This document shows positions 3,086-24,423 of a DNA stretch of 25,609 bases, piece after piece. Each line of letters opens with the position of its first letter. The stretch's first letter is position 1. Location of the stretch: contig JACCSE010000231.1 of the NCBI GenBank assembly GCA_013813145.1, positions 1-25,609 of the forward strand, read 5' to 3'. The DNA comes from Gemmatimonadales bacterium. GTDB taxonomy: Bacteria > Gemmatimonadota > Gemmatimonadetes > Gemmatimonadales > GWC2-71-9. A program made the translations under genes and the position numbers. The notes beneath the pieces were generated by a model. That model saw only the letters and a program-made list of their open reading frames with translations. It searched no databases and had not been told where the DNA came from.

Positions 3086-3270
3086 CCACGAACGGGCGCG
3101 ACGGAACCCGGCATACTGGTTGCGGGTTCTTCAACGAAAGAGGCGCCGGTGTCACAGTTGGCAGCGGCTACCGGCTCGTAGTGGGTGGCCGGGGTCACGA
3201 GGCGCTGCGAACACGCATCACGGCTGTCGTGTCATTCTCCCACACATGTTATAGAACCGGCAGGCCGGCC

Positions 3271-4725
3271 ATGGTTTCGGAGTCTCGCTACATGAACGTC
3301 GGTTTCTCATCCTTTCTGACCGCCCTGCTCGCGACCATGGTGTCGGCGTGCGGCGGACCCGCGCTCCGCCTCCCGGAGCGCCCGCCCGTCAGCTCGGCGA
3401 CGGCCATCGTCGGCGCCAACCTGTGGGACGGGACCGGCCGCGCGCCGGTGGCGAACGCGGTCACCCTGGTGCGCGGCGATCGAATCCTCTGCGCCGGCTC
3501 CGCCGGCGAGTGCCCGGTGCCACAGGGGGCCCGGGTGATCGACGCGCGGGGGCGGTACCTGATTCCCGGTCTCATCGACAGCCACGTCCACCTGCTCTTC
3601 ATGGTCAACGGCAGCGCCGGCGAGGAGCTCACCCTCGACCTGCGCGACCTCCTGGCCCAGGGTGTCACCACGGTTCGCGACATGGGCAGCGACCCCGCGG
3701 CGCTGCTCTCGCGCGTGGGGGCTCAGCCGGCCGCTCCCCGGGTGTACACGATGCAGCTCGTGGCCGGGCGGCGGTTCTTCTTCAATGGGCTCCGGGGAGT
3801 GGAGACGGCGCGGGGAACGATTTACCGCCAGCCGCCGGCACTCACCATGCAGCGTCTCGGATGGCGCCCGATCCTGTTCACCGCCGACGAGGACCCCGAC
3901 CAGATCGTCGCCGACGCGCGCGACGCGGGGGCGATGGGGCTCAAGCTCTACGCCCACCTCGACAGCCTGGCCGTCACGCGGCTCACCGAGGCGGCCCACC
4001 GGGCCGGAATGCCGGTCTGGGGCCATGCCTGGGTTCAGCCCACCAGCGTGCTGGAGCAGGCGCGGGCGGGCCAGGATGGCGTGGTGCACGCCGCCGGGCT
4101 GGCGGGCGAGCTCTATTCGGTGGAGGAACGAAGCAAACTGGTCAACGACGGCGACCTGCAGACCGCCACGGCCAAGGTCGCCTCCGCCGGCTCGGCGCAT
4201 GACCCCCGGGTCGTCGCGGCGCTCGACTACATGGCCCGGAACGGAACCTTCCTCGAACCGACGCTCGACGCGGTACGGCACAGCGTGGCCTACTTCGATT
4301 CCAGGCTGCGCCGGGTGCCGTCGGAGCAGGAGGACTACGCCCGGGCCGCTTCCCAGTTCGGGATTGAGGTGGCGCGGGAAGCGATCCGCCGCGGTGTCCG
4401 CATCAGCGCCGGAAGCGACCACGTCGCCTTCGGGCCGGCGCGCGACCGGGCAACGCTCTTCGGCGAGCTGCAACTCCTGGTGGACTCGATTCCACTTTCG
4501 CCCACCGCCGCGCTCCTCGCGGCCACCCGAGATGCGGCGCTCGCGATCGGTGGGGAGCCGGCCCGGCAGGTCGGGACCATCCAGGCGGGCCGGTACGCGG
4601 ACCTCGTGCTGCTGGGCAAGAACCCGCTGGAGCGGATCGAGAATCTCGAGTCGGTGGAGTGGGTCATGCGCGGCGGGAGGCTCTGGCGGCCGGGGCAACT
4701 GCGGAGCGGGATTGCGATGAGGTAG
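3271..4725 (+). CDS. Amidohydrolase-superfamily metal-dependent hydrolase, probable lipoprotein
   Basis: PGLIDSHVH (HxH), GVTTVRDMG, GLKLY lysine, WGHA, VVHA, AGSDH, GTIQAGRYADLVLL. Hydrophobic N-terminus ending in lipobox-like VSAC-GG. Start 3271 or 3292. Confidence 0.82.
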   Translation: MVSESRYMNVGFSSFLTALLATMVSACGGPALRLPERPPVSSATAIVGANLWDGTGRAPVANAVTLVRGDRILCAGSAGECPVPQGARVIDARGRYLIPGLIDSHVHLLFMVNGSAGEELTLDLRDLLAQGVTTVRDMGSDPAALLSRVGAQPAAPRVYTMQLVAGRRFFFNGLRGVETARGTIYRQPPALTMQRLGWRPILFTADEDPDQIVADARDAGAMGLKLYAHLDSLAVTRLTEAAHRAGMPVWGHAWVQPTSVLEQARAGQDGVVHAAGLAGELYSVEERSKLVNDGDLQTATAKVASAGSAHDPRVVAALDYMARNGTFLEPTLDAVRHSVAYFDSRLRRVPSEQEDYARAASQFGIEVAREAIRRGVRISAGSDHVAFGPARDRATLFGELQLLVDSIPLSPTAALLAATRDAALAIGGEPARQVGTIQAGRYADLVLLGKNPLERIENLESVEWVMRGGRLWRPGQLRSGIAMR

Positions 4726-4740
4726 ATCGCCGGTGTGCCG

Positions 4741-5691
4741 TTACTGCCCCGCTGCCCCCCCGCCCCGCTGCCCCCCTGTTGCCACCGGCAACTCCGCCTT
4801 CGCCGCCCACTCGGTCCACGAACCGACATACACCTTCACCCGCGGATACCCCAGCAGGTACCGCAGCGTGAAGTGGACGTGGCTGGCCTCCGTGGCGCTG
4901 TTGCAGTAGGCGATGATCGCCTTGTCCGGAGTGATCCCCTGCGCCGCGTACTCCGCTCGGAGCTGTGCCGCCGGCTTCCACACGTGGCCGAAACCACCCA
5001 ACGTCAGGTCGCTCTGCCAGTAGTGGCTGATCGCGCCCGGAATGTGCCCCCGCCGCACCTGCGCCCCGGCCTCCCCGGCGTACTGATCCGGCGGCCGGGC
5101 GTCCACCAGCAACGCATCTCCGGTGCGCATGGCACGCTCCGCTTGCTCGAGCGAGGCCCGCTCCGGCTGGAAGCGTGCGGGCGGAAACTCGGTGGCTGCC
5201 ACCCGGGGATACCGCTGATCCACCGGACGGTGCTCCAGGAGCCATTTGAAGTAGCCCCCGTCCAGGACGTAGACCTGGGGATGACCGAAACCCGCCAGCA
5301 GCCAGGCGAGAAAGGTCGCGTCGATGTTGTGGGTCTCGCCCGCGCTGTAGATCACCACCGGGCGCTCAAAGGAAAACCCCAGGCGTCCGAACAGCTCGGC
5401 GTAGCTCGACTGGTCGAGCAGTTGCGTCGGCAGGCCGCCCTGGCTGGCGCGCAGGGTCTCGGTGTGCAGGAAGACGGCGCCCGGCAGGTGGTCCTTCAGA
5501 TACGTCGCAACGTCGGTACGGACGTCCACCAGGCTGACGGACCGCTCGCGCAGCCACGCCTCGAGGGTGTCGGTCGAAACGATGCCCGGAAGTGAGGTGG
5601 CCACGTCGGCGCGGGGGCCTTCTTCGGCACGGTGAGTGGCGCATCCGACGAGGAGCGCCGCGAGGAGCAGCGCCACCCATTTCCGTCTCAT
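4741..5691 (-). CDS. Tandem-domain rhodanese/sulfurtransferase, lipoprotein
   Basis: LVDVR...HLPGA, VYVLDGGYFKW, LVDARPPDQYAG...RGHIPGA, catalytic YCNSATEAS, YVGSWTEW. Signal MRRKWVALLLAALLVG-C. ATGA overlap with the upstream gene. Confidence 0.9.
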   Translation of the reverse strand: MRRKWVALLLAALLVGCATHRAEEGPRADVATSLPGIVSTDTLEAWLRERSVSLVDVRTDVATYLKDHLPGAVFLHTETLRASQGGLPTQLLDQSSYAELFGRLGFSFERPVVIYSAGETHNIDATFLAWLLAGFGHPQVYVLDGGYFKWLLEHRPVDQRYPRVAATEFPPARFQPERASLEQAERAMRTGDALLVDARPPDQYAGEAGAQVRRGHIPGAISHYWQSDLTLGGFGHVWKPAAQLRAEYAAQGITPDKAIIAYCNSATEASHVHFTLRYLLGYPRVKVYVGSWTEWAAKAELPVATGGQRGGGAAGQ

Positions 5692-6641
5692 GGCGAGGCG
5701 TCAAGCCCCATGAATCGCCTCTCCTCTTCCAGGTACACGCGAACCGCGTTGCGCCTCCGCCGCGAGTTGAGCGAGACCGGCCGGTCCCCATCGGCGGGAG
5801 GCAGCGAAGCGATGGCGCGCTGCATCGGAACTCCCCGCTCCACCGCGGAGCGCATGTCGCTCTGAAGCTGGGTCAGGTAGCGTCGGGTAGTGGCCACCAA
5901 CGTTGCCGGTTTCTCCGGAATGGCCCCGTGCCCTGGCACGACGACTCGAGGATTTTGTCCGTCCAGTGTCGCGAGCGCGTCCAGCAGCAGCCGTGAGTCT
6001 CCATCCACCACCATAGTGACTCCGTCCTCGACCAACAGGTCGCCCGCGAAGAGCACCCGCTCCTTCGGCAGCCACACGATCAGGTCTCCGGGAGAATGCG
6101 CGGCCCCCGGATGGGAGATGACCAGCGTGCGTCCGCCGAGTCGGAGTGTATCGGTTCCGGTGACCGGGCGGTCGGGAGCATTGGCGTACTGGAACCCCCG
6201 CATGGCCTCGGCGCCGACGACGCCGGTCCAATCCGCGGCCAGCGCGTCGTCGCCGCCCTCCGAGGCGAGCGTGCGCCGGTCGGGATGGGCGATCACCTTG
6301 GCGCCGGCCCGGCGCAGCGCGACCGCCCCGAAATGATGGTCCGGATGGTGGTGGGTGAGAACCAGCCAGCGGACCGGCTGCCGGGTCGCTGCTCGGATCG
6401 TCGCGAGCAGGCGCGCTCCCTGGGCTGGACTCGCCAGGGCGTCGATGACGACGACGCCCTCCGCCGTCACCAAGAAGCCGGCGTTGGGACGTCCCTCCGA
6501 GCCGCGCCCCGTGTCGCCCACGACCGCGAATACGCCGGGCGCCAGCTCGCGTGCCGGATATGGCGCGGCTCCCGCGGAGTCGGCCTCGGCGGGCGCCAGC
6601 GGCAACAGATGGAGGGCGAGGCGGAGAGCGGTGGGGATCAG
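5688..6641 (-). CDS. Metallo-beta-lactamase-fold hydrolase, SoxH-like, probably secreted
   Basis: THHHPDHHFG (HxHxDH), AHSPGD, LFAGDL, VVPGHG. The ORF track starts at TTG 6605; the frame is open to a CTG at 6641 overlapping the soxZ stop, which restores a signal-like peptide (start is inference). Confidence 0.8.
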   Translation of the reverse strand: MIPTALRLALHLLPLAPAEADSAGAAPYPARELAPGVFAVVGDTGRGSEGRPNAGFLVTAEGVVVIDALASPAQGARLLATIRAATRQPVRWLVLTHHHPDHHFGAVALRRAGAKVIAHPDRRTLASEGGDDALAADWTGVVGAEAMRGFQYANAPDRPVTGTDTLRLGGRTLVISHPGAAHSPGDLIVWLPKERVLFAGDLLVEDGVTMVVDGDSRLLLDALATLDGQNPRVVVPGHGAIPEKPATLVATTRRYLTQLQSDMRSAVERGVPMQRAIASLPPADGDRPVSLNSRRRRNAVRVYLEEERRFMGLDASP

Positions 6642-6973
6642 GCCGAGACGAACGCGATGTTGGCGGACTGCTCGAACACATCGCCCTTGTTATCGGTCCA
6701 GACCATGGACAGTGGCGCTTCGCTGTCGGCCCGCAGAGTGAAACTGATCACCGGATCGCGGCTCACGCCGGAAGTCCACTCGAACCGGGCCACTTCCTGG
6801 TCGCCGTACCTCACCACGACATTCTTGATGAAATACGCCGGGATCGGCTGACCCTCCGCGGTGCGGAAGAAGCCGGTGTCCATCGGGTGCGAGATGATGG
6901 CGTTTACCACGATCAGCTCGCCCCGGATGATGCGCTCCGGGACCCGGATGCGGGCTTCGCCGAGGGCGCTCAT
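6638..6973 (-). CDS. soxZ: SoxZ sulfur-carrier partner subunit
   Basis: IISHPMDTGF, IPAYFIKNV, WTSGVSRDPVISF, MVWTDNKGD match the SoxZ pattern. ATG at 6973 overlaps the soxY stop (TGATG). Confidence 0.9.
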   Translation of the reverse strand: MSALGEARIRVPERIIRGELIVVNAIISHPMDTGFFRTAEGQPIPAYFIKNVVVRYGDQEVARFEWTSGVSRDPVISFTLRADSEAPLSMVWTDNKGDVFEQSANIAFVSA

Positions 6974-7485
6974 CAGCCACATCCGTTCAGCAGGACCTGC
7001 ACCCGGGCATAGTCGGCCCAGACCTCGCCGGTGTTGGTCTCCGCGATCGCCCGAACCCAGGTGGAGCGCTTCATCTTGATGCGAGTGGAGAGCGAGACGG
7101 TGCCGACGGCAGGCGTCAGGTGGAAAGCGGCCAGGTGCGCATCGGGGTTGAAGTCCACGATGAGATGCACTGCCTTGACGTGTCGCTCGGGAGTCATCGG
7201 GAGGTCGCTCTCGATGATGACCGGAACCACCCGGCCGTCTTCCGCCGCGGCAGGCATGTCGAGCTGAATGTGTCCTCGGCGGATGGGGCGATCGCCGAAC
7301 AACCCCCTCAGGATCCGGGCGACCTCCTCGTTCGGCACCTCGGGATCGCCGGGATCACCCGCCAGCGTGGTGGCCGCGAGCAGACGCTCCCCCGGAAAAA
7401 GCACGCCGGAGCCGAGCAATCCGGCGGTGGCGAGCGCGGACGCCCGAAGAAAGTGGCGGCGGGAAGTATTGTCGGCAGGCGACAT
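6973..7485 (-). CDS. soxY: SoxY sulfur-carrier protein with Tat signal and variant C-terminal arm
   Basis: SRRHFL Tat motif, IQLDMPAAAEDGRVVPV, VDFNP, STRIKM, C-terminal VQVLLNGCG. AGGAG RBS upstream of ATG 7485. Confidence 0.88.
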   Translation of the reverse strand: MSPADNTSRRHFLRASALATAGLLGSGVLFPGERLLAATTLAGDPGDPEVPNEEVARILRGLFGDRPIRRGHIQLDMPAAAEDGRVVPVIIESDLPMTPERHVKAVHLIVDFNPDAHLAAFHLTPAVGTVSLSTRIKMKRSTWVRAIAETNTGEVWADYARVQVLLNGCG

Positions 7486-7752
7486 CACAGGCTCCTGGTT
7501 ACGCCCACTTAACCCTCGGGAAACCTCGGTGGTTCCCCGGATCAAGTCAAGCGAATCGCGCTGACGATCGGCAACGCCCGGAGTGCCCAAAGGAGGACAT
7601 CAAAGAGCTGTCAGGGATCCGGAGAGCGAACCCGCATCGGAGCGTCAACCTTTTCCTGGCAACCATTTTCATGGTGATCTCACCCGGCGGCTCGGCCCTT
7701 GCAAAGCCCGGCCGGCTTCCCGGTGGCGGGGCCTGGGCGAGCTCGCTGCAAC

Positions 7753-7781
7753 TTGTGTCACCTGGCCCTGATCACTACTTT
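7753..7781 (+). promoter_or_regulatory. Candidate sigma70 promoter for the spt operon
   Basis: TTGTGT-17 nt-TACTTT about 60 nt upstream of the GTG at 7844; sequence match only. Confidence 0.35.
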
Positions 7782-7843
7782 AAGCCATTCAGACATATAG
7801 CGATGTGGGGACCTTCCTCACCTCCTCTCCGCTCCGAGGGCCC

Positions 7844-9049
7844 GTGAACACACAAGAGCTTCAGACTGTCGCCCTCTTCGACAAGTGCCGCCAGTTCACC
7901 AAGGCCCGTGAGCTCCAGGCGGTCGGCCTCTATCCTTACTTCAATCCGATCTCGGAATCCGAGGACACGGTGGTCGTCATCGACGGCCAGAAGCGGATCA
8001 TGCTGGGGTCGAACAACTATCTCGGCCTTACCCACCATCCGAGGGTCCTGGAGACCGCCACCCGCGCCCTGACGCGGTACGGGTCGGGCTGCACCGGCAG
8101 CCGGTTCCTCAACGGCACGCTCGACCTGCACGAGCGGCTGGAGAGCGCCCTCGCCGAGTTCCTGGGCAAGGAATCCTGCCTGGTCTTCTCGACCGGGTAC
8201 TCGGCCAATCTGGGTCTCATCTCGGGGCTGGTGGGCCGGGGCGAGGTCGTCTACCTCGACAAGCTGGACCACGCCTCGATCGTGGACGGCGCCAAGCTCT
8301 CCTACGCCGATACCGAGCGATTCAACCACGGTGACATGGGGAATCTGGAGCGCCGGATGGAGCGGAACGGTACCGGTCGCGGCGCGATGATCGTGGTGGA
8401 CGGGGTGTACTCGATGGAGGGGAACATCGCCGACGTCCCCGGGCTGGTCCGGGTGGCCCGCAAGTACGGCGCCGCCCTGGCCCTGGACGACGCCCACGCG
8501 CTCGGCGTGCTCGGCCCCAACGGGGACGGGACGGCCGCGCACTTCGGGGCGATCGAGGATGTGGACATCATCGCCGGCACCTTCTCCAAGTCGCTCGCTT
8601 CGATCGGCGGGTTCGTCGCCGCTTCGGAGAGCGTCATCCACTACCTCAAGCACCACAGCCGGCCGCTGATCTTCACCGCGTCGCTGCCGCCCGCCAACAC
8701 CGCCGGGGTGCTCGCCGCACTCCAGGTGCTCCAGGACGAGCCCGAACGGCGCGAGCGGCTCTGGTCCAACACCCGCCACCTCCAGGCGGGCTTCCGGAGC
8801 CTCGGCTTCGAGATCGGCCCCACCCAGACGCCGATCGTGCCGGTGCTGGTCGGACCGCTGGAGAAGACCTTCGTCATGTGGCGCCGGCTGTTCGACGCCG
8901 GCGTGTTCACCAACCCGGTCGTGTCTCCGGCGGTGCCGCCGACGCAGTGCCGGTTGCGCACCAGCCTCATGGCGACGCACACCTTCGATCAGATTGATTT
9001 CGCCCTGGAGCAGTTCGCCCGTATCGGCCGGGACCTGGGGGTCATCTGA
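7844..9049 (+). CDS. spt: Serine palmitoyltransferase-like alpha-oxoamine synthase (PLP)
   Basis: MLGSNNYLGLT, GSGCTGSRFLNGTLDLH, FSTGYSANLG, DHASIVDG, DGVYSMEG, DDAH, GTFSKSLASIGG, IFTASLPP. The GSRFLNGT segment resembles bacterial SPTs more than BioF or Kbl. GTG start with GAGGG RBS. Confidence 0.78.
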   Translation: MNTQELQTVALFDKCRQFTKARELQAVGLYPYFNPISESEDTVVVIDGQKRIMLGSNNYLGLTHHPRVLETATRALTRYGSGCTGSRFLNGTLDLHERLESALAEFLGKESCLVFSTGYSANLGLISGLVGRGEVVYLDKLDHASIVDGAKLSYADTERFNHGDMGNLERRMERNGTGRGAMIVVDGVYSMEGNIADVPGLVRVARKYGAALALDDAHALGVLGPNGDGTAAHFGAIEDVDIIAGTFSKSLASIGGFVAASESVIHYLKHHSRPLIFTASLPPANTAGVLAALQVLQDEPERRERLWSNTRHLQAGFRSLGFEIGPTQTPIVPVLVGPLEKTFVMWRRLFDAGVFTNPVVSPAVPPTQCRLRTSLMATHTFDQIDFALEQFARIGRDLGVI

Positions 9050-10182
9050 GCCCACCGCTGCGCCTCCGCGCGGCGCGCAATCGACGAGACCTGAAGCACT
9101 TCATCGATCTGCCCTACCGACTCCACGCGCGGGACCCTCTCTGGGTCCCGCCGTTGCGTCGGGACATGGACGCGCTGCTCTCCCGCGCCCGAAACCCCTT
9201 CTTCGAGCATGCCGAGGCGGAGTATTTCCTGGCCGAGCAGGCGGGCGAGGTGGTAGGCCGCGTCGCCGCCATCAGCAACCGTCTGCACAACGAGACCCAC
9301 GGGGACCGAGTTGGCTTCTTCGGGTTCTTCGAGTGTACCGACGACCAGGCGGTAGCGGACGTGCTGCTCACCGCCGCGGCGGATTGGTGCCGGGAGCGGA
9401 GACACGACCTCCTTCGCGGTCCCGCGTCCTTTTCGGTGAATGACGAGTGCGGCCTGCTGGTTGACGGGTTCGAGACTCCCCCAACCCTCATGATGCCGTA
9501 CAACCCCCGCTACTACGTCCGGTTGCTGGAGACATCCGGGTTCGTGAAGGCCAAGGACCTCTGGGTATACCAGGGCGGGAGCGAACAGGCTTACGTGCCG
9601 GTACCCGAGCGGCTCGCGCGGGGTACGGAGCTGATCCGCCAACGCTTGGGGATTACCATCCGGCCGCTCGACCTGAGGGACTTCGACGGCGAGGTCGAAC
9701 GGATCAAGGCGCTGTACAACGCGGCGTGGGAGAGGAACTGGGGCTTCGTCCCCATGACCGACCGGGAGATCGACCATCTGGCCGAGCAGTTCCGACCGGT
9801 GGTGATCCCGGAGCTGGTGCCGATCGCGGAGAAGGACGGCCGGATGATCGGATTCGGCATCACCCTGCCGGACCTGAACGTGGTGTTTCGCGGCAACCGC
9901 TCCGGCCGCATCTTTCCGGTCATTCTCAAGGTTCTCTGGGCCCTGAAAATGAAGAAGATCCGCCGGGCTCGGATCCTCCTGCTGGGGATCCTGCCGGAGT
10001 ATCGCGGCCGGGGAGTCGATGCGATGCTCTACCATTGGATCTGGACCAAGTCGGGAGAGCGGCAGATCTATTGGGGAGAGGCGGGGTGGATCCTGGAGGA
10101 CAACCCGGCGATGAACGCCGGGCTGGAGAAAATGACCTTCCGGGTCTACAAGACCTACCGGCTCTACGATCGGCCGATATGA
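9046..10182 (+). CDS. GNAT-fold acyltransferase, bacterial ceramide synthase (bCerS)-like
   Basis: FIDLPYRLH..DPLWVPPL, VGFFGFFEC, GPASFSVNDECGLLVDGF, MMPYNPRYY, YNAAWERNWGFVP, WILEDNPAMN. The frame is open from CTG 9046 (overlaps the spt stop); the ORF track starts late at 9154. Confidence 0.75.
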   Translation: MSPPLRLRAARNRRDLKHFIDLPYRLHARDPLWVPPLRRDMDALLSRARNPFFEHAEAEYFLAEQAGEVVGRVAAISNRLHNETHGDRVGFFGFFECTDDQAVADVLLTAAADWCRERRHDLLRGPASFSVNDECGLLVDGFETPPTLMMPYNPRYYVRLLETSGFVKAKDLWVYQGGSEQAYVPVPERLARGTELIRQRLGITIRPLDLRDFDGEVERIKALYNAAWERNWGFVPMTDREIDHLAEQFRPVVIPELVPIAEKDGRMIGFGITLPDLNVVFRGNRSGRIFPVILKVLWALKMKKIRRARILLLGILPEYRGRGVDAMLYHWIWTKSGERQIYWGEAGWILEDNPAMNAGLEKMTFRVYKTYRLYDRPI

Positions 10183-11147
10183 GGGCGCTGGTGACCGGCG
10201 CTACCGGATTCGTCGGCAGTCATCTGGTGGAAGCGCTCCGGCGGGAGGGTAGCGAAGTGACGGTGCTCGCCCGCTCGGCGAGCAAGGCTGAGGCGCTGGC
10301 GTCGCTCGGTATGCGGGTCATCGCGGGCGATCTCCACGACCCCGGCGCTCTGAACCGCGCGGTGGAAGGAAGGGACGTGGTATTTCACGTGGCGGGTGTG
10401 GTGTCGGCACGAAACGAAGCCGAGTTCTTCCGGGCCAACCGGGACGGCACCGCCAATCTGGTGGCGGCGAGCGCGCAGGCCGGCCGGCCCCGCTTCGTCT
10501 TCGTTTCGTCCCTGGCCGCGGCCGGCCCAGCCGATCCCGGGCGGCCGCTGGTCGGGAGCGAGCCTCCCAGGCCGGTCACCGCGTACGGCCGGAGCAAGCT
10601 GGCGGCCGAGCGGGTCGTCGCCGCCGGCGAGTTGTCCTGGACCATCGTGCGTCCTCCCACGGTCTATGGCCCGCGCGACCGCGAGGTCCTGAAGGTGTTC
10701 CGCCTCGCCCGGTTGGGCCTGGCACCGGTGTTCGGCAACGGCAAGCAGGAACTTTCGGCCGTGCACGGAGCCGATCTGGCGGACGCGCTGCTCGCGGCCG
10801 GAGCATCGGAGACCGCCGCAGGCAAGATCTACCACGCTTGCCATCCGGAGATCTTCACCAGCGCCGAGTTCGTCCGGGCCATCGCCGCCGCCATGGGCCG
10901 GCGGGTCGCCGTGATCGGCGTGCCCCGCCCCATCGGACGTGCCCTGCTGGCGCTGACCGAAACCGGCGCGCGCCTGACCGGCCGTCCGACGATCCTCACC
11001 ACCGACAAGGCCAACGAGTTCTTTCAGGCGGCGTGGACGGCGGACCCCGGACCGCTCACTCGAGACACCGGCTGGCAGGCGGCGCACGATCTGCGGGCCG
11101 GTCTCGCCGACACCTACGAGTGGTACCGGAGCGCCGGATGGCTCTAG
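10179..11147 (+). CDS. NAD(P)-dependent epimerase/dehydratase-family SDR, candidate ceramide reductase (CerR)
   Basis: VTGATGFVG, FVSSLAA, YGRSK (YxxxK), RPPTVYGP. ATGA overlap with the GNAT gene. Reductase role inferred from context. Confidence 0.75.
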   Translation: MRALVTGATGFVGSHLVEALRREGSEVTVLARSASKAEALASLGMRVIAGDLHDPGALNRAVEGRDVVFHVAGVVSARNEAEFFRANRDGTANLVAASAQAGRPRFVFVSSLAAAGPADPGRPLVGSEPPRPVTAYGRSKLAAERVVAAGELSWTIVRPPTVYGPRDREVLKVFRLARLGLAPVFGNGKQELSAVHGADLADALLAAGASETAAGKIYHACHPEIFTSAEFVRAIAAAMGRRVAVIGVPRPIGRALLALTETGARLTGRPTILTTDKANEFFQAAWTADPGPLTRDTGWQAAHDLRAGLADTYEWYRSAGWL

Positions 11148-12049
11148 CCCGGCGCGAGGGCCTTCGCGCGGTCGATGTTCTTCTTCTGGGCTACCTCGGA
11201 GTCGTCTCCGCGGTCGCGGTGGCGCGCGCGCCGTCGCAGCCGGGATGCTGGTGGCTGCTAGGCGCGCACGGATTGTTCCTCGTCCTCCTGGTGCTCATCA
11301 CCCGGCCCGGACTCGGTCCGGTCGGCCGCACCCTGCGCGAGATCTACCCCTTGCTGCTCCTGGCCGGTCTCTACGCCGAGCTCGACGTGCTCAATGGGTC
11401 GGCCTCGCGGCCGGTCTACGACGCGATGGTGCAGCGCTGGGAGCTGGCGCTGTTCGGGGTGCAGGCCAGCACGGCCTGGTGGCAGAGCGCGCCGAGCCGG
11501 ATCTGGTCGGCCGTACTCCACGCCGCTTATTTCTCCTACTACTTCATCATCCTGATACCGGCGCTCTACTTCGTCTGGCGACGGGATCTGGACGCGGTCC
11601 GCCACTTCGTTCTCGTCGTGATGACCGTCTTCGTGCTGTGCTACTTCACGTTCATCTTCTTTCCGGTGGCCGGACCGTACTATCTCTTTCCGAGGCCGGC
11701 GGCCTGGTTCACCGATAATTATCCGGCGCGGCTGGTGTACGCCACGCTCGCCGGCGGCAGCTCCTACGGAGCCGCCTTCCCCAGCTCGCACGTCGCGGCA
11801 ACGGTCGCCGCGGCCCTGGCCGCTTACCGCGGATCGCGTTCGCTGGGCCTGCTGCTCGCGCTGCCCACGGCGTTGCTCACCGTGGGAGTCGTGTACTGTC
11901 AAATGCACTATGCGGTGGACGCTCTGGCCGGGCTCGGCGTGGGCGCCGCCGTGGCTTGGGCGCTCGGCGCCCGGCGGAGCCCGGTGCCATCCCGCCTCCC
12001 GCTGCGAAGCCGCCGGTCCGGCTCGCTCGCCGCCCCGCATACGAGCTGA
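11138..12049 (+). CDS. Membrane PAP2-superfamily protein, Aur1/IPC-synthase-like
   Basis: Several hydrophobic segments, AYFSYY, FPVAGP, AAFPSSH and MHYAVD catalytic-type motifs. ATG at 11138 overlaps the preceding gene by 10 nt. Confidence 0.8.
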   Translation: MALARREGLRAVDVLLLGYLGVVSAVAVARAPSQPGCWWLLGAHGLFLVLLVLITRPGLGPVGRTLREIYPLLLLAGLYAELDVLNGSASRPVYDAMVQRWELALFGVQASTAWWQSAPSRIWSAVLHAAYFSYYFIILIPALYFVWRRDLDAVRHFVLVVMTVFVLCYFTFIFFPVAGPYYLFPRPAAWFTDNYPARLVYATLAGGSSYGAAFPSSHVAATVAAALAAYRGSRSLGLLLALPTALLTVGVVYCQMHYAVDALAGLGVGAAVAWALGARRSPVPSRLPLRSRRSGSLAAPHTS

Positions 12050-12123: not shown

Positions 12124-12603
12124 TTACTGCACCGTGATCCTGCCCTTCATGCCGAGGGCAAGGTGGGGAAGGCAGTAGTACTTGTACTCACCCGTCGGAG
12201 CGTTGGCGAAGGTGACCGCGTACACCGCGCTGGGCTCGGTGAGGAGCTGGCCTTCGAGCGGCGCCATCTGGTCCGGCATGCCGGCCTTGAGCGCATCGGC
12301 GGCGCCGGAGGGGATGCTGTCGCCCCAGAAGGAGACGTTGTGCGGGCCCCCGCTCACGTTGTGGAATCGCACCACGTCGCCGGCCTTGATGGTGAGCTGG
12401 TCGGGCACGTACTTGTAGCTGCTGCCCTCGAGCACCATGTTGACGTCGTGCGTGGCGCCGGCCGCGGCGGGAGCCGCCCCCGCGCCGGATGCCCCCTGCT
12501 CCGGAGCCGCTGTGGTCTGCTGGTCATTTGCCGCCCCCTGCTCGCCGCCGCCACAGGCCGCGAACAGCACCGCCAGCCCCGCCACCAAGGAAGTCACGCG
12601 CAT
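12124..12603 (-). CDS. Plastocyanin/azurin-family type-1 blue-copper lipoprotein
   Basis: Lipobox LFAA-C-GG, Ala/Pro/Gln linker, GPHNV and YYCLPHLALGM (His, Cys, His, Met ligands). Confidence 0.9.
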   Translation of the reverse strand: MRVTSLVAGLAVLFAACGGGEQGAANDQQTTAAPEQGASGAGAAPAAAGATHDVNMVLEGSSYKYVPDQLTIKAGDVVRFHNVSGGPHNVSFWGDSIPSGAADALKAGMPDQMAPLEGQLLTEPSAVYAVTFANAPTGEYKYYCLPHLALGMKGRITVQ

Positions 12604-15132: not shown

Positions 15133-15225
15133 GTCGCAGGTCTCAGGTCGCAGGTCTGTTGCAGAAAAAGACCCTCCCAGTGGCTCACGGGAGGGTTTTT
15201 GCTTGGGACCTGCGACCTGCGACCT
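15131..15225. repeat. Inverted array of AGGTCGC heptamers enclosing a terminator
   Basis: Left AGGTCGCAGGTCTCAGGTCGCAGGTC (15131-15156); right GACCTGCGACCTGCGACCT (15207-15225), whose reverse complement is AGGTCGCAGGTCGCAGGTC. Confidence 0.85.
15165..15200. terminator. Bidirectional rho-independent terminator
   Basis: AAAAAG-ACCCTCCC-AGTGGCTCAC-GGGAGGGT-TTTT between the convergent anti-sigma and actF genes. Confidence 0.85.
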
Positions 15226-16585
15226 ATCTTGGCTTCTCCCTCCGCTCCACCAGCTCCGGCCTCACGTAATCCTGCGCGCCCTCCTCATGCAGGAACTCGG
15301 CTTCCACGATCGCATGGCCGCGCTCGCGGTTGAGGGTGATCTCGGCCAGGCGCGGGGAGACCATGGGAAAGGTGCGGGCGAAGAGGGCGTAGGTCAGGAG
15401 GTAGAGACCCAGAAACGCGAGCGTGGGCCCCGCCTCGGCGACACCAAAGTGCGGGCCGGGCAGGACCGACACCGAGGGCATGACCAGAAGGTAGCGCTCC
15501 AGCCAGAGGGCCACGAGACTCAGCGCGGCGAAGAAACCGAGGGTGAACCGCGTCTTCTTGGGGGCGACCCCGAGGAGCCCGAAGAACGGGATGACGAACA
15601 TTCCCAGGAAGACCGCCCGCCCCACCGGCAACCAGTGACCCCACAGTCGCGCGTAGACGAAGCCGGTTTCCTCCGGCAGGTTGCCGTACCAGATAACCAG
15701 GAACTGGGCCCACATCAGGTAGGCCCAGAACACGGTGAAGCCGAAGCACAGCTTCCCCAGGTCGTGCCGCTGCTTGGGCGAGACCAGGTCGGCGATCCCG
15801 AGGTGCGAAGCGCCGTAGATCGTCATCAGGGCGAGCAACATGTGCGCGCCCAGGAAACTGCCCATGAAGTAGAAGCCGCCCAGCAGGTTGGAGAACCAGT
15901 GCGGCTGGAGCGCCATGATCCCGTCGAACGCCACCATGCTGAACACGATGGCGTACAGCACCGCGTAGGTCGGCGCGAGCCGGTAGATCCGCGCCTCGTG
16001 CGCGGTGGCGGCCTGGGGCGAGTCGTATTTCCGCGTCCACCGGTCGTAGAGCGATCGGCGGCCGGGCCCGGCCGCGGCGCGGACGGCGTACATGTCCGGG
16101 ATGAGATCGGCCCGCACCAGCTTCCACCCGACCAGGTAGAGCGCCACGAGGCCCACCGCCAGACGGATGAACATGAACTCATGGGAGAGCCACACCGCCT
16201 TGCCGTGCTGCAGCTCGTGCAGCGCGTGCTCCATCGGCCCGTAGATCGGCGCGTAGCCCACCGTGAAAATGAGCAGGAACCCCAGGAGTGATATCGGCAG
16301 GAACGCGACCGAGGCCTCCGCGAAGCGGATCACCAGCCCGGACCATTTGGCGTTGGTGATCTTCTGCACCGCCGCGAAGGCGATGCTTCCGCCGGCAAGG
16401 CCGGTGAAGTAGAGCCAGTTGACGTGGAAGAGCTGCCAGGCGCGGGCGCCGCCCTCGCCGAGGAGCGACTGGATGAAGAAAAACAGGCCCAGCACCGTGA
16501 GCCCGCCGCCGATGCCGAGAAACAGCTCGTACCTGCCGGCGAGGGCCCGCTCAACCAGACGGGCGTGGATGGTGCCGGGGCTCAT
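15224..16585 (-). CDS. actF: Alternative complex III subunit ActF (NrfD-like membrane protein)
   Basis: Polytopic; FDGIMALQPHWFSNL, HDLGKLCFGFTVFWAYLMWAQFLVIWYGNLPEE. ATG 16585 overlaps the actE stop (ATGA). Confidence 0.85.
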   Translation of the reverse strand: MSPGTIHARLVERALAGRYELFLGIGGGLTVLGLFFFIQSLLGEGGARAWQLFHVNWLYFTGLAGGSIAFAAVQKITNAKWSGLVIRFAEASVAFLPISLLGFLLIFTVGYAPIYGPMEHALHELQHGKAVWLSHEFMFIRLAVGLVALYLVGWKLVRADLIPDMYAVRAAAGPGRRSLYDRWTRKYDSPQAATAHEARIYRLAPTYAVLYAIVFSMVAFDGIMALQPHWFSNLLGGFYFMGSFLGAHMLLALMTIYGASHLGIADLVSPKQRHDLGKLCFGFTVFWAYLMWAQFLVIWYGNLPEETGFVYARLWGHWLPVGRAVFLGMFVIPFFGLLGVAPKKTRFTLGFFAALSLVALWLERYLLVMPSVSVLPGPHFGVAEAGPTLAFLGLYLLTYALFARTFPMVSPRLAEITLNRERGHAIVEAEFLHEEGAQDYVRPELVERREKPR

Positions 16586-17283
16586 CGCGGCCGTTCTCCG
16601 GTGGAGCCGGTGGCGGAGGGGCCGGGCACGATCGGCGTCGCCGCGCCGGCCGGCTCGGGGGCCGCCGGGGTCTGCGCCTGGAGCTTGCGCACGTGATTGA
16701 CGATGGCCCATCGGTCGCTCGGCGCGTACACCTTGTCGCCGTAGCGGGGCATCACGCCTCGACCGTAACGGACGATACTGTAGATGTAGCCGTCGCTGTA
16801 CGCGCGGGCTCGGCCGGTGAGGAGCGAGGGCGCCGCGATCCGGCTCGATATCGGCCCACGAGCGTCGCCGGCGACGCCGTGGCAGACGGTGCAGAAGTTC
16901 TGGTACAGCGTGTCGCCCGCGGCGTCGAGATCCCGCGAAATGATCGGCACCTCGGGACCGGGGGGCCGGGTCTCGCCCGGCGTCCCCGGCGCGAACGGGT
17001 TCCTGAGGGCGTTGGCCGCCGTCGCCACGCCCTTGGTCCATTCGGCCGACCAGTCCGGCTCCCGGCCGGTCACCGGAACCGTCCCCGGCACCGTGTACCG
17101 CGGCACCGCGGCCGTCTCATAGGGCCTGACGTACCGGGCCGTGATCATGTGGTCGAACCAGGGAATGACGTACCAGAGATCGTCCGGCGAGGGCAGCCGG
17201 TAGTAGTAGAAATCGCAGCCGGCCGACAGCAGGGTCAGCACCGCGATCCAGGCTCCGCGCCACCCGCGCTCACGCCGCTTCAC
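16582..17283 (-). CDS. actE: ACIII subunit ActE, monohaem cytochrome c lipoprotein
   Basis: Lipobox LSAG-C, single CTVCH, GRGVMPRYG, DRWAIVNHVRKLQ. Confidence 0.85.
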   Translation of the reverse strand: MKRRERGWRGAWIAVLTLLSAGCDFYYYRLPSPDDLWYVIPWFDHMITARYVRPYETAAVPRYTVPGTVPVTGREPDWSAEWTKGVATAANALRNPFAPGTPGETRPPGPEVPIISRDLDAAGDTLYQNFCTVCHGVAGDARGPISSRIAAPSLLTGRARAYSDGYIYSIVRYGRGVMPRYGDKVYAPSDRWAIVNHVRKLQAQTPAAPEPAGAATPIVPGPSATGSTGERPR

Positions 17284-17796
17284 GTCGCACCTCCACCGCG
17301 CCTGCCGCGCGCAGCATCTGCTCCAGCGATCCGGTCTGCTCGCCCGCCGCGGGAACGAAGATCCCGATCTGGTCGTCGCTGAACTGCGGATCGTAGGCGA
17401 TCCCGCGTTTTCCCATCAGTACCGCGAACAGCGCTACCGCTGCCACGGTGCTGAGCGCGCCCAGCAGGATGGTGAGCTCGAAGGCGATGACTACGTACGG
17501 CGGGATCGAGCCGATCGGCTTGCCGCCGACGATCAAGGGCCAGTCGTGGGACATCCAGATGGTCATTCCGAAGCCGGCGGCGCACCCGGTCAGCCCACCG
17601 ATCAAAGTGAACAGCCGCACCGGACTCACCCGATGGCTCAGCGCCTCCTCCAGCTCGTGATTGGGGGCGGCGCTGTAGACCACCATGTTGCGGTGGCCCT
17701 TTGCCCGGAGCGCCCGAATGGCGTCGGAGGCGGCGTCCACGTGGGCGAACGACGCCAGCAGCCCGGGAACCGATCTCCCCCGATTCATCAGCCCCA

Positions 17797-17797
<1 letters not shown>
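17270..17797 (-). CDS. actD: ACIII subunit ActD (DUF3341-like)
   Basis: LLASFAHV, FTLIGGLTG, DWPLIVGGKP, VIAFELTILLGA, YDPQFSDD. ATG 17797 overlaps the actC stop (TGATG). Confidence 0.88.
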
Positions 17798-19167
<1,370 letters not shown>

Positions 19168-19170
19168 GGG

Positions 19171-22100
19171 TCAGGCCTCCACCGGATGCAGGACCTTGGC
19201 GAGATAGGCGATCGCGGGCCGCACGTTGAGGTCTTCCAGGATGCGGTAGCCGCGCGGGTTCTGCTGGAGCCCGGCGACCCGGCTGCCGGGATCCCGCACG
19301 TTGCCGAACACGATGCAGTCGGACGGGCAGGCCTGAGCGCAGGCCGTCGTGAACTCGCCGTCCCGGATCGGCCGGTCCTCGAGCCGGGCGTGATTCTGGG
19401 CGCCGCGGATGCGCTGGACGCAGAAGGTACATTTCTCCATGACGCCGCGCGCCCGAACGGTCACGTCGGGGTTGAGCTGGAGATGCAGCGGCTCCGGCCA
19501 CGCCTTCTCGTTGTACTTGTACCAGTTGAAGTACCGCACCTTGTAGGGGCAGTTGTTGGCGCAGTAGCGGGTGCCGACGCAACGGTTGTACACCTGGCCA
19601 TTGAGCCCGTCCGCCGTGTGGTAGGCGGCGTAGACCGGGCAGACCGGCTCGCAGGGTGCGTTGCCGCAGTGCTGGCAGAGCATGGGCACGAAGCGCGCGG
19701 ACACCGGATCGCCCGGCTCCTCCCCTCCCTCCCAGTAGCGCTCGATCCGGAGCCAGGTCATCTCCCGGCCGCGGAGGACCTCCGCTTCGCCCACCGTGGG
19801 GATGTTGTTCTCCGCGTAGCAGGCGGTGACGCAGGCGTTGCAGCCGGTGCATTTGGCAAGATCGATGGCCATGCCCCACTGAGGATCCTCACCCCGGTAG
19901 TCCCCGTACTCCGTGGCTTCCCGCTGCTCCTCCGCCCACCCGTGCACCGCTTCCAGCTCCCGCTCGGTGTTGACCTCGTGCTTGCCGCGACCTGCCTCCA
20001 TGTACGCCTGTTCGACGGTGAGCCCCTGCTGCGCGGCCGCCAGCGGAATCGCCTCGGCGATGCCGCGGCCGAGCTGACGCGGAACGCCCTCGACACTGGC
20101 CAGCTTTCTGTAACCACCGGTCTTCCGGACCCGCACCCTGGTGGAGAGATAGTGGACGAACTCGCCGGTGGGAGCCGCGAGGAGGTCGAGCGGATTGACC
20201 CCCCGGCCCCGCGCGAACTCTCCGTACTGGGTGTGGCCCAAGCCCAGCGGCATCGCGACCACGTCGTCCCTGAGACCCGGGTAGACGTAGACCGGCGCCT
20301 CGACCGTTCCGTGAGGAGAGGTGAGCTCCAGGATCTCGCCGTTGCGCACGTCGAGCGCGCGCGCGGCGCCGGGGCCGACCTCGACCCAGGAATGCCAGGT
20401 GATCTTGGTGACAGGATCGGCATTCTCCAGCAGCCACGGCTTGTTGGCGCCGCGGCCGTCGTAGAGCATGCTGTGGGGATAGGCGATGAACACGAAGTCG
20501 CCCTCGCCCTCGAACGCGGGCGGGGTATAGCGGGCCTCCTGCCCGCCGCTCACCGACAGCGCTATGGCGGGTGATGCCGGCGGGTCGCGGAAGGCGCCGC
20601 CGAGCCGGAGTGCCTCGTGCCAGAAGGTGTCGAAGTCTCCGGCGCCCAGCTCCGTGGCGAGGGCCTGCCAGCGGCTTCTGAGGTGCGCCTCGTAGGTGGG
20701 CGCATCGAAGCGGGCGAGCGCGCCGCCCGCCGCCCGGGCCGTGCGGAGCAGAACGTCGCCCGCGGGCAGGGTGTTGAAGACCGGCTCCATCACCGGCTGC
20801 ATGAGGCTATAGACCCCGGCCCGGGGCCGGAGATCGTCCCACCGCTCGAGCGCGTGGTGCTCCGGGAGCAACAGATCGCAAAGTGCCGCGGTCTCGTCCA
20901 GATGGAGCGAGGTGGAAACCTTGAGGCCTACCTTGCCAAAGGCGGCCGCGAATCCACTCGCGTTCGGGAGGGTGTAGGCGGGATTGGCCTCGTGCACCAG
21001 CGCCACGGCGATCTCGCCGGCGCCCATGGCGCGGGTGAGCTCGGCGAGCGGGGCGAGTCCGCCAGCCGCAGGCAGATCGGCACCGAAGCGCACCGTCTCG
21101 CCGAGGTTGCCGGCGGCGAAATTGAGCACGTTCACCGCCGCGCAGAGCTCGACTGCGCCGGAGTGCTGTCCCGCTACCCCACCGGCCACCGCGAGGCTCG
21201 GGCGGGCCGCGGCGAACTCGCGCGCGATCCGTTCGATCGTCCCGGCCGGCACTCCGGTCTCCCGCTCCGCCATCGCCGGGGTGTAGGAAGCGAGCGCTCC
21301 GGCCAGCCCAGCCGGCTCTCCGCCCCGTTCGGCCAGCAGCACGTTGGCCATTGCCAGCGCGAGCGCCGTCTCGGAGCCGGGCCGGGTGGGCAGCCACTGG
21401 TCGGCGTTGAGGCCGGTCAGGTTCATGCGCGGCGCGGCGAAAACGAGCTTGGCGACGTCCTTGTCCTCGAACCCATGCGAGCGGGCGAAGCCGCGCGAGT
21501 TCTCGATGGACGCGCCCCCGGTGTCGAGGAAGTCGGCGCCGAAGGAGACGATGTAGCGGGCCCGCCCGAAATCGTACGTCGCCAACTGGTCGGTGCCGAA
21601 GACCTCGCGATTGGCCGCGCGCTGCGGCTCGTCGTCGAAGGTCTCGTAGCGCACCAGGCGCCCGCCGAGGGCGGAGGTCCAATCGGCCAGCAGGTCGGAG
21701 AAAGTCCCGCGCCCGGCGCCTGAGATTGCGGCGACCCGGCCCCCTGCTTTGCCGAGCCCGGCCGCCAGCCGCGCGATGGCGTCGTCCCAACCGATCTCCT
21801 GGAAGGTGCCGTCCGCCGAGCGAGCCATCGGCGCCTTGATCCGTCCCGGATTGTAAAGCCCCTGGAGCGCCGCCTGCCCGCGGGAGCAGAGCTTGCCCTG
21901 ATTGATCGGGTGCTCGGGATTGCCCTCAAGCTTCACCGCGCGACCCTCACGGGTACGCGCGTGCACGCCGCACCCGCTGGGGCACTCGGTGCAGGTGCTG
22001 GCGTACCAGGTCGCCAGTCCGGGCACCTGGTCCTCCGACTGGACCAGGTACGGCACCAGCTTCTGCACGTTGTCGGTGGAGCAGCCGCTCAGGGCGAGCG

Positions 22101-22176
22101 CTCCGCCGGCGGTAGTGCCGAGCACGGTGAGGAAGTGGCGGCGGTCGATGGTGGTGGACGGAGTTTCGTCGTCCAT
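19171..22176 (-). CDS. actB: ACIII subunit ActB (molybdopterin-oxidoreductase-like domain fused to a ferredoxin domain)
   Basis: Tat RRHFL plus LSG-C; C-terminal CTGCNACVTAC, CQHCGNAPCEPVCP, CVGTRYCANNCP, EKCTFC...CAQACP; position between actA and actC. Confidence 0.92.
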   Translation of the reverse strand: MDDETPSTTIDRRHFLTVLGTTAGGALALSGCSTDNVQKLVPYLVQSEDQVPGLATWYASTCTECPSGCGVHARTREGRAVKLEGNPEHPINQGKLCSRGQAALQGLYNPGRIKAPMARSADGTFQEIGWDDAIARLAAGLGKAGGRVAAISGAGRGTFSDLLADWTSALGGRLVRYETFDDEPQRAANREVFGTDQLATYDFGRARYIVSFGADFLDTGGASIENSRGFARSHGFEDKDVAKLVFAAPRMNLTGLNADQWLPTRPGSETALALAMANVLLAERGGEPAGLAGALASYTPAMAERETGVPAGTIERIAREFAAARPSLAVAGGVAGQHSGAVELCAAVNVLNFAAGNLGETVRFGADLPAAGGLAPLAELTRAMGAGEIAVALVHEANPAYTLPNASGFAAAFGKVGLKVSTSLHLDETAALCDLLLPEHHALERWDDLRPRAGVYSLMQPVMEPVFNTLPAGDVLLRTARAAGGALARFDAPTYEAHLRSRWQALATELGAGDFDTFWHEALRLGGAFRDPPASPAIALSVSGGQEARYTPPAFEGEGDFVFIAYPHSMLYDGRGANKPWLLENADPVTKITWHSWVEVGPGAARALDVRNGEILELTSPHGTVEAPVYVYPGLRDDVVAMPLGLGHTQYGEFARGRGVNPLDLLAAPTGEFVHYLSTRVRVRKTGGYRKLASVEGVPRQLGRGIAEAIPLAAAQQGLTVEQAYMEAGRGKHEVNTERELEAVHGWAEEQREATEYGDYRGEDPQWGMAIDLAKCTGCNACVTACYAENNIPTVGEAEVLRGREMTWLRIERYWEGGEEPGDPVSARFVPMLCQHCGNAPCEPVCPVYAAYHTADGLNGQVYNRCVGTRYCANNCPYKVRYFNWYKYNEKAWPEPLHLQLNPDVTVRARGVMEKCTFCVQRIRGAQNHARLEDRPIRDGEFTTACAQACPSDCIVFGNVRDPGSRVAGLQQNPRGYRILEDLNVRPAIAYLAKVLHPVEA

Positions 22177-22192
22177 TAAGGCTCCAGATGTA

Positions 22193-22269
22193 GGCTATCA
22201 GCTATCGGCTATCGGTCCGCGGGAGCGGAGGACCGGTGCTGCAGGACCGATAGCCGATAGCGGATAGCC
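22193..22269. repeat. Inverted GCTATCR heptamer array (26-bp stem, 1 mismatch) between actA and actB
   Basis: GGCTATCAGCTATCGGCTATCGGTCC (22193-22218) pairs with GGACCGATAGCCGATAGCGGATAGCC (22244-22269); 25-nt loop. Confidence 0.9.
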
Positions 22270-22270
22270 T

Positions 22271-22858
22271 TCAGTAATGACACACCGAACAGTCCCGCGA
22301 CACGTTCCGCTCCAGATGGCACGTGATGCAGAAGCCCATCTTGTCCACCTGATTCACCTTGAACACCTGGGGCATGCGGGCGACGTCGCCGTGGCAGGTG
22401 GCGCAGGCGTTGGGGCCCATCGCCTTGATGTGGCGCTGGTGGGGGAAATGGGCGTGGCGCGGGATGAAGTGGACGCGGACCCACTCGGTCGGCTTCTTCT
22501 CGGACCAGGCCTGCCGCACCTTGGCGATCTCGGTCCGGCTCGCGCTATCGCTCCCGGAGATCACGAGATGGCAGCCCATGCAGGTCTGAGTCGAGGGGAT
22601 CCCCGGTTCCGGCGACACGGCCACGGAGTAGTGGCAGTACTGGCACTGGATCTTGAATTGTCCGGCGTGGATGTCGTGGCGGAAGAAGATCGGCTGCCGG
22701 GGACCTCGGAGCGCGGCGGTGTCGCTGATGACGGGAGCCGCGATGGAGTCAGCGACGGCGGCCGCCTGCTGGGCCTGCGGGGCCGGATCGGCGAGCGCCA
22801 GCAGCGCCGCTACTCCCCCGGCCCCGACGCCGCCGAGCACGATTGCCAACGTACGCAT
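22271..22858 (-). CDS. actA: ACIII subunit ActA, pentahaem cytochrome c
   Basis: N-terminal hydrophobic anchor; five CxxCH motifs (CQYCH, CMGCH, CATCH, CITCH, CSVCH). Start set at ATG 22858; the ORF track start at 22948 overlaps the putative promoter. Confidence 0.88.
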   Translation of the reverse strand: MRTLAIVLGGVGAGGVAALLALADPAPQAQQAAAVADSIAAPVISDTAALRGPRQPIFFRHDIHAGQFKIQCQYCHYSVAVSPEPGIPSTQTCMGCHLVISGSDSASRTEIAKVRQAWSEKKPTEWVRVHFIPRHAHFPHQRHIKAMGPNACATCHGDVARMPQVFKVNQVDKMGFCITCHLERNVSRDCSVCHY

Positions 22859-22920
22859 CTGAGATCCCACGCTGAAGAGGAGCGCGAGGCGAGTGCCGCC
22901 GCCGGTCCAACGCGCGCCGA

Positions 22921-22948
22921 AGTATAGTGCGCACAGCCAAGTACACAA
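22921..22948 (-). promoter_or_regulatory. Candidate sigma70 promoter of the act operon
   Basis: Minus strand TTGTGT-16 nt-TATACT about 60 nt upstream of the actA ATG. Confidence 0.45.
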
Positions 22949-22987
22949 CCCGACCGCGTGGAGCGTCGAAGCGAATTTCCGACCGGA

Positions 22988-23509: not shown

Positions 23510-23511
23510 CC

Positions 23512-24276: not shown

Positions 24277-24278
24277 GA

Positions 24279-24419
24279 GGCTATTGGCTATGGGCGATCG
24301 AGATCGGGTATCAGCTATCGGCTATCGGTCCGCGGAGAGCGGAGGCTGGGTACTCCAGGGCGGATAGCCGATAGCTGACAGCCGATAGCTGATAGCCGAT
24401 CGCTGATACCCGATCGCCC
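24279..24419. repeat. Inverted GCTATCR heptamer array between pilT and trmJ
   Basis: About seven degenerate heptamers (GGCTATT GGCTATG GGCGATC...GGTATCA GCTATCG GCTATCG), a loop, then eight reverse units (GGATAGC CGATAGC TGACAGC CGATAGC TGATAGC CGATCGC TGATACC CGATCGC). Confidence 0.88.
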
Positions 24420-24423
24420 TCCA

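Follow-up and report, generated by a model that had tools for sequence, protein, structure and literature searches.

The window analysed here is the whole 25,609-nucleotide contig JACCSE010000231.1 (C116 in our numbering) of a soil Gemmatimonadales metagenome-assembled genome (GCA_013813145.1; 2.98 Mb in 608 contigs, 82% complete). Between positions 4741 and 7485 its minus strand carries a compact four-gene module that encodes homologs of SoxY and SoxZ, a metallo-β-lactamase-fold (MBL) hydrolase and a rhodanese. The features of the module and its two flanking genes are as follows.

6973–7485, minus strand: soxY-like carrier gene, 170 residues (PF13501, 104 bits; best PDB match SoxY of 4uwq)
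7444–7464, minus strand: twin-arginine translocation (Tat) signal SRRHFLR of SoxY
6976–6987, minus strand: carrier arm N-G-C-G of SoxY (C-terminus LLNGCG-stop)
6638–6973, minus strand: soxZ gene, 111 residues from the ATG in TGATG (PF08770, 90 bits; alternative ATG at 6982)
5688–6641, minus strand: SoxH-like MBL hydrolase gene (PF00753, 88.6 bits)
6336–6353, minus strand: MBL motif HHHPDH
6084–6113, 6033–6050 and 5925–5939, minus strand: further MBL ligand motifs
5721–5759, minus strand: conserved MBL C-terminal helix RRRNAVRVYLEEE
4741–5691, minus strand: lipoprotein tandem rhodanese gene, 316 residues (PF00581 in two stretches, 109.6 bits)
5641–5652, minus strand: rhodanese lipobox LVGC (within LLVGC)
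4903–4905, minus strand: rhodanese catalytic Cys263 (loop YCNSATEA)
3181–4725: amidohydrolase gene, convergent flank of the operon
7805–9049: serine-palmitoyltransferase-like gene, divergent flank of the operon

The genes follow one another as SoxY (7485–6973), SoxZ (6973–6638), MBL (6641–5688) and rhodanese (5691–4741), with stop and start codons overlapping at each junction as TGATG (ggcTGATGagc), CTGA (gccTGAtcc, with the preceding c) and ATGA (ccATGAgac). A promoter and terminator scan of positions 4500–7900 returned no sites, and none inside the four-gene block. All 80 species-representative Gemmatimonadales loci that were collected through the MBL protein (66–81% identity) have the order SoxY–SoxZ–MBL–rhodanese, which recurs in other genera of the family; since gene order is identical in 80 of 80 loci, the arrangement is not due to chance. 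The first-pass annotation of this DNA had named the same four minus-strand genes at these positions, their overlapping codons and the divergent and convergent genes that bound them, and had asked for a survey of neighbourhood conservation; profile matches, coordinates and a re-reading of the junctions confirm the first three, and the 80 loci supply the last.

SoxY and SoxZ resemble their counterparts in canonical Sox systems (Paracoccus pantotrophus and Thermus thermophilus SoxYZ; PDB entries 2ox5 and 4uwq) in their folds and in a carrier cysteine near the C-terminus of SoxY. SoxZ passes the cut-off of TIGR04490 (83.3 bits against 76), whereas SoxY falls below that of the `true SoxY' model TIGR04488 (94.4 bits against 125) and ends in NGCG rather than in the GGCGG for which the canonical family model is named. 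This NGCG terminus is present in 80 of 80 loci, and Asn130, Gly131 and Cys132 of the modelled SoxY chain are invariant in the alignment (A2). The two proteins are encoded by separate genes and fail the cut-off of TIGR04557, the fused-carrier model (83.9 and 64.3 bits against 140). SoxY bears a Tat motif and SoxZ has no export signal of its own, from which we infer that SoxY would be exported by the Tat pathway with SoxZ carried along as a passenger.

Among curated models the MBL protein matches TIGR04559 (`quinoprotein relay system zinc metallohydrolase 2') best, with 170.8 bits against a cut-off of 280; it scores 133.7 bits against TIGR04558 (cut-off 300) and only 34 bits against TIGR03413. 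In this genus the binuclear-zinc ligand set is complete, consisting of HHHPDH, the histidine of HPGAAHSPGD, the aspartate of FAGD and the histidine of PGHG, and LTHHHPDHHFG is read in 78 of its 81 loci. The solved folds nearest to the AlphaFold2 model (pLDDT 93.2) include 8D2Z, an uncharacterized Burkholderia cenocepacia MBL protein (TM 0.80), 6UXU (chlorothalonil dehalogenase), the B1/B2 lactamases and SdsA1, an alkylsulfatase with the MBL fold. Persulfide dioxygenase–rhodanese fusions (CstB, PRF type) are cytoplasmic iron enzymes of the ETHE1/glyoxalase II type. The module resembles them in coupling or fusing an MBL-fold domain to a rhodanese and differs in that its MBL protein is SoxH- and B1/B2-like, appears to be exported and pairs with SoxYZ. 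A persulfide-dioxygenase reading is not favoured, the best matches being SoxH-like proteins, B1/B2 lactamases, the Chd dehalogenase and the alkylsulfatase.

The signal-like N-terminus that had been reported for the MBL protein depends on where translation begins. The frame contains no ATG, GTG or TTG before the TTG at 6605, and a start there leaves no leader; the hydrophobic leader LIPTALRLALHLLPLAPAEA is present only if translation begins at the CTG at 6641, which overlaps the soxZ stop codon and is probably the true start. A comparable leader is obtained from a canonical start in 46 of 72 orthologous loci; in another 24, the present locus among them, CTG alone provides one. Since only CTG yields a leader in these 24 loci, the CTGA overlap points to coupled re-initiation, with a non-canonical start codon. 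The leaders have no positively charged N-region. Export of the protein encoded in this window is thus likely, and the signal-like N-terminus stands with the CTG start and falls with the TTG start.

Modelled together as three chains, SoxY, SoxZ and the MBL protein received a complex score of 0.78, compared with 0.12 for the best control; the mark used for this score is met by 58 of 80 solved complexes and by two of 110 mismatched pairs, counts that hold only roughly here because our own alignments and three chains were used. The confidently predicted contacts involve residues 98–100, 182 and 242–283 of the modelled MBL chain, residues 39–53, 96, 98 and 128 of SoxY, and residues 2–10, 24–28, 35–37, 73 and 75 of SoxZ. 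On the MBL side, residues 242–283 form a C-terminal helical extension with the nearly invariant residues Asn268, Ala269, Glu275 and Glu277, which are common even to relatives at about 30% identity; on the SoxY side, residue 128 lies at the base of the carrier arm. The arm may reach the MBL metal site. No solved SoxH–SoxYZ complex was present among the PDB matches found. The model supports binding of the MBL protein to SoxYZ, and with it the earlier suggestion that this enzyme acts on SoxY.

The rhodanese aligns with 1uar over residues 37–306 (E-value 8 × 10−40) with the active-site cysteine in place, and the loop YCNS[AT]TEA is conserved among its orthologs. With two domains and the active-site cysteine in the second, it is of the catalytic tandem thiosulfate/mercaptopyruvate sulfurtransferase (TST/MST) type; it has no match to TIGR03865, the CXXCW rhodanese-like family. 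It is not a constant member of the module: a sister family (f2) keeps only SoxY–SoxZ–MBL, followed by varying downstream genes, and a search of five f2 genomes yielded nothing closer than paralogs of 31–35% identity. In another lineage a 630-residue MBL–rhodanese fusion adjoins soxY–soxZ (seen in independent ENA and JGI assemblies). Because no ortholog was found in the f2 genomes searched and the rhodanese is fused elsewhere, the conserved core of the module is the carrier and the MBL protein, with the rhodanese a tightly coupled addition.

Profile searches covering 50 genomes from the genus (46 with a completeness of at least 90%) bear out the description of the module as an orphan, separate from the Sox oxidation enzymes. 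SoxA (TIGR04484) is found in none of the 50, and was found in the Thermus control genome; SoxB (TIGR04486) is above the cut-off in none (best 134.5 bits against 550), the matches being 5′-nucleotidase-family proteins; SoxC is likewise above the cut-off in none (best 232 bits against 420), the best match being a sulfite-oxidase-family protein encoded elsewhere in the genome, of which most genomes of the genus hold one (140–230 bits). A canonical Sox set elsewhere in the genome was rejected on the basis of these searches. A published survey also found a complete sox system in no Gemmatimonadota genome (PMC10581226). At one Gemmatimonadales locus (L136; G231:C175) a canonical-looking soxYZ adjoins a SoxA/TsdA-type dihaem cytochrome gene, a rare trace of real Sox in the family.

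Among 301 Gemmatimonadota genomes from 126 genera, 52 are SoxY-positive, each with a single SoxY match: 50 carry the module, one (G096) carries the fused pyrroloquinoline quinone (PQQ) type and one (G231) the canonical type. The gene mch encodes methenyl-tetrahydromethanopterin (H4MPT) cyclohydrolase and is a marker of H4MPT-linked formaldehyde oxidation. It is present in 65 of the 301 genomes (64 above the cut-off), and these include 48 of the 50 module genomes as against 16 of the 251 genomes without the module; 14 of the 15 module genera are among the 22 mch genera, and the association also holds within each of the two families; these figures are descriptive and should not be read as true probabilities.

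Two other lineages have the module embedded in an H4MPT gene cluster. In one of them (G145, locus L154) the order is hydantoinase-like, soxY, soxZ, MBL, PTPS, CitG-like, ATP-grasp, mch and fhcC; the fusion-bearing loci (L101 and L102) are flanked in the same way as far as the ATP-grasp gene, at which the retrieved loci end. Elsewhere the module is 10–16 kb from mch (G175 and G120), and in sister lineages it is 5–30 kb from mch or a dehydrogenase gene. In the one-carbon (C1) island of the genus itself, read in genome G024, the PQQ dehydrogenase has a signal peptide, two vicinal cysteines and the DYD motif typical of the lanthanide enzyme XoxF; the island also includes genes for a `quinoprotein dehydrogenase-associated' binding protein (TIGR03871, above the cut-off) and for a pentapeptide protein, as well as cofactor genes for H4MPT and methanofuran. 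The window contains no gene for a PQQ dehydrogenase with vicinal cysteines. Five genomes of the genus were found to have one SoxY copy each, no CXXCW protein (TIGR03865) above the cut-off and, apart from the module's own, no SoxH-like protein scoring more than 105 bits. A general link to PQQ dehydrogenases was rejected as too unspecific, TIGR03075, the methanol/ethanol family, being present in 227 of the 301 genomes, including families f6 and f7, in which no SoxY was found. The unpublished genome G210 enters the analysis only as one of these 227.

The protein kinds of the module recall the quinoprotein dehydrogenase-associated set, whose families are TIGR04557 (fused SoxYZ-like carrier), TIGR04558 and TIGR04559 (SoxH-like zinc metallohydrolases) and TIGR03865 (CXXCW rhodanese-like). 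The likeness had been noticed from the sequence and is upheld: the three kinds of protein are the same and all would be exported, the best curated match of the MBL protein is a member of the set, and the module genomes also hold vicinal-Cys PQQ dehydrogenases with TIGR03871 and pentapeptide partners. The set is represented in the ped cluster of Pseudomonas putida by PP_2677, PP_2678 and PP_2666 (PMC12997753). The module differs from it in that SoxY and SoxZ are unfused, in that SoxY carries a Tat signal and ends in NGCG, and in that its genes in this genus do not stand beside a dehydrogenase gene. A bona fide fused SoxYZ carrier does occur in another genus of the same family, between two MBL genes (L132, G096:C1:12000–28000, and L159), and in G096 it lies about 2 kb from a PQQ dehydrogenase gene (740 bits). 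As more than one SoxY match was found in none, no sampled genome combines the fused carrier with the unfused module.

Because it lacks sulfur-oxidation enzymes and travels with genes for methanol and formaldehyde oxidation, the module looks like a local version of this catalogued helper set. With moderate confidence, we read it as a cysteine-carrier system of three exported parts that assists periplasmic C1 oxidation by XoxF and the H4MPT pathway and diverges from the catalogued form, with sulfur as the likeliest cargo. On this reading it is not an energy-yielding Sox pathway. By analogy with the SoxY family, the invariant cysteine of the NGCG arm would bear a covalent adduct; the MBL protein, predicted to dock on SoxYZ through its C-terminal helices and active-site loops, could then free the adduct by hydrolysis, and the membrane-anchored rhodanese of this family might add or remove sulfane sulfur at the same cysteine. 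The chances that the cargo is sulfane or oxidized sulfur are roughly even; a thioester derived from a C1 compound or an aldehyde is considerably less likely, to about the same degree as something else altogether.

Several observations weigh against this accessory role in C1 oxidation. Neither the module nor its proteobacterial counterpart has been the subject of experiment, the PQQ-linked trio being listed as untested in a review of the ped cluster and in the SoxT paper (PMC12997753; PMC11582611). None of the curated cut-offs for the PQQ `relay' families is reached by the module (83.9 against 140, 170.8 against 280 and 133.7 against 300 bits), and its rhodanese, a two-domain TST/MST-type lipoprotein, is of another type than the CXXCW protein of the set. 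In this genus the module and the XoxF island are either on different contigs or, wherever one contig holds both, separated by more than 200 kb; here the module has moved away from the C1 genes. The existence of 16 genomes with mch, and of many with PQQ dehydrogenases, that are without the module means that it is not required for these C1 pathways, and the co-occurrence statistics overstate the case because related genomes are not independent. The docking score expresses the confidence of the model in its own prediction, for which we supplied the alignments. Finally, in genera g16, g26 and g48 (L140, L147, L149 and L150) the MBL motif reads AHHPDM in place of HxHxDH, the first histidine being replaced by alanine and the last by methionine, so that a binuclear zinc mechanism may not hold in every lineage; these loci keep the operon with soxYZ and, except in L150, the rhodanese, and their MBL protein may be a mono-metal or altered-metal variant.

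The first-pass annotation had instead proposed an autonomous periplasmic sulfur relay: SoxY would receive a persulfide from the rhodanese and be unloaded by the MBL protein, which would thereby replace SoxB (and SoxAX), and the relay would serve in detoxification, in sulfur assimilation or in the handling of thiosulfate or polysulfide. Read in this way, the module has no C1 link. The gene identities, the orphan status and the predicted docking of the MBL protein on SoxYZ agree with the relay; its self-containment does not, given the co-occurrence with mch and the placement of the module within H4MPT clusters in two lineages. We regard it as unlikely, yet the best of the alternatives. A tandem rhodanese with an intact conserved catalytic cysteine, a SoxZ above the `true SoxZ' cut-off, the natural fusion of MBL protein and rhodanese, the absence of SoxA, SoxB and SoxC from the 50 genomes and the sulfite-oxidase-family enzyme encoded elsewhere in most of them are all points in its favour. 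So are the contexts of the nearest outgroup SoxH-like MBL proteins (30–35% identity; of ten representatives only P0045 passes the TIGR04558/TIGR04559 cut-offs): the gene for one overlaps the end of a 566-residue, SoxB-sized 5′-nucleotidase-family gene, another adjoins genes for a 326-residue rhodanese, a split YeeE and DsrE, and a third lies near yeeE.

The same idea has a precedent in the soxCDYZ–soxH clusters of Campylobacterota (Sulfurimonas sp. CVO and Sulfurovum indicum), which lack SoxB and in which SoxH has been proposed to substitute for it by releasing sulfate from SoxY (PMC11237559; PMC10045233). Those clusters share SoxYZ and a SoxH-like MBL protein with the module; they differ in including SoxCD, which oxidizes the bound sulfur, and in having no C1 link. 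In the Gemmatimonadales genus SoxC does not reach its cut-off, and no oxidase of carrier-bound sulfur was identified. The relay further leaves unexplained the presence of mch in 48 of 50 module genomes and the embedding in H4MPT clusters, and it is at odds with the absence of a rhodanese ortholog from the five sister-family genomes searched and of a YeeE-type sulfur importer from all five genomes of the genus that were searched. From canonical Sox, in which SoxH is also an exported MBL-fold protein encoded with the sox genes, the module is set apart by its lack of SoxAX, SoxB and SoxCD.

A bolder proposal, which we think improbable, is that the SoxY arm cysteine captures a reactive product of XoxF (formaldehyde or a C1–sulfur species) and that the docking MBL protein hydrolyses it off, amounting to protein-bound, thiol-dependent formaldehyde handling; if true, the long-unexplained SoxYZ-like and SoxH-like helper genes of PQQ dehydrogenases would gain a defined chemistry. 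In a stepwise scheme for aldehyde capture, given equally little credence, SoxY would trap formaldehyde from XoxF as a hemithioacetal, a dehydrogenase would convert this to an S-formyl thioester, a glyoxalase II-like MBL protein would free formate and the rhodanese would keep the cysteine serviceable. The tight co-occurrence with H4MPT genes, the embedding in an H4MPT cluster, the XoxF with vicinal cysteines in the genus and a conserved core of carrier and hydrolase without the rhodanese fit such a scheme, and MBL-fold thioesterases are an established kind, as in glyoxalase II. The module's MBL protein, however, is near SoxH and the B1/B2 lactamases rather than glyoxalase II (the 34 bits against TIGR03413), its nearest relatives stand in sulfur contexts, a catalytic rhodanese fused to it has no role in the scheme and the oxidation step is only postulated.

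Proteins of the SBP56/MtoX (methanethiol oxidase) family are enriched with the module without being constant (27 of 50 module genomes, 26 of 251 others), and SBP56 was rejected as an obligatory partner on this partial association. Full-length genes (∼590 bits) lie at G065:C3:61831–63207 and G070:C1:1365752–1367128 (L176 and L177), with the gene in two pieces in G024 and G077; many genomes in the genus encode full-length SBP56, a hint that soil Gemmatimonadales may make use of methanethiol. Despite this enrichment, a scheme in which a periplasmic MtoX-type enzyme yields formaldehyde and H2S, the module taking the sulfur and H4MPT the carbon, is very unlikely, since SBP56 is missing from nearly half of the module genomes (it is present in none of three in g17 and in two of ten in g16, and has no match in G000), is common in genomes without the module and was never seen beside it.

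The surroundings of the module were also recorded. Positions 7805–12049 of the window hold a sphingolipid-type operon that begins with the serine-palmitoyltransferase-like gene followed by a GNAT gene, and positions 15224–25593 hold an alternative complex III-like set (a molybdopterin/FeS subunit, an NrfD-like subunit and a multihaem cytochrome), with which a cupredoxin gene (12124–12603) is associated; no functional tie of either to the module was seen. Inserts of about 3 kb between the serine-palmitoyltransferase-like gene and soxY at some loci encode a secreted M6 peptidase and were set aside as unrelated. In genus g16 (L144:5491–7100 and L139:8635–9117) soxY is preceded on its own strand by arsenic genes, namely one for an ACR3-type arsenite carrier (SBF family, seen in L144) and an arsC of the low-molecular-weight phosphatase type; they lie directly upstream in L144, and a TetR gene stands in between in L139. 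The module-bearing records are soil and biocrust DNA metagenomes, and none is on record as RNA.

Alcohol dehydrogenases that depend on PQQ and lanthanides are widely accompanied by these helper genes, which have names in the databases and whose chemistry is now more testable. The Gemmatimonadales form offers useful traits for this purpose: an unfused carrier, a classical catalytic rhodanese that is fused to the hydrolase in one lineage, and an invariant NGCG end. The module tracks the H4MPT formaldehyde pathway and not any Sox enzyme, and in the structural model its hydrolase binds SoxYZ by way of a conserved C-terminal helix. It occurs in many abundant soil species, and in this clade soxY and soxZ annotations from soil metagenomes should not be equated with a potential for thiosulfate oxidation.

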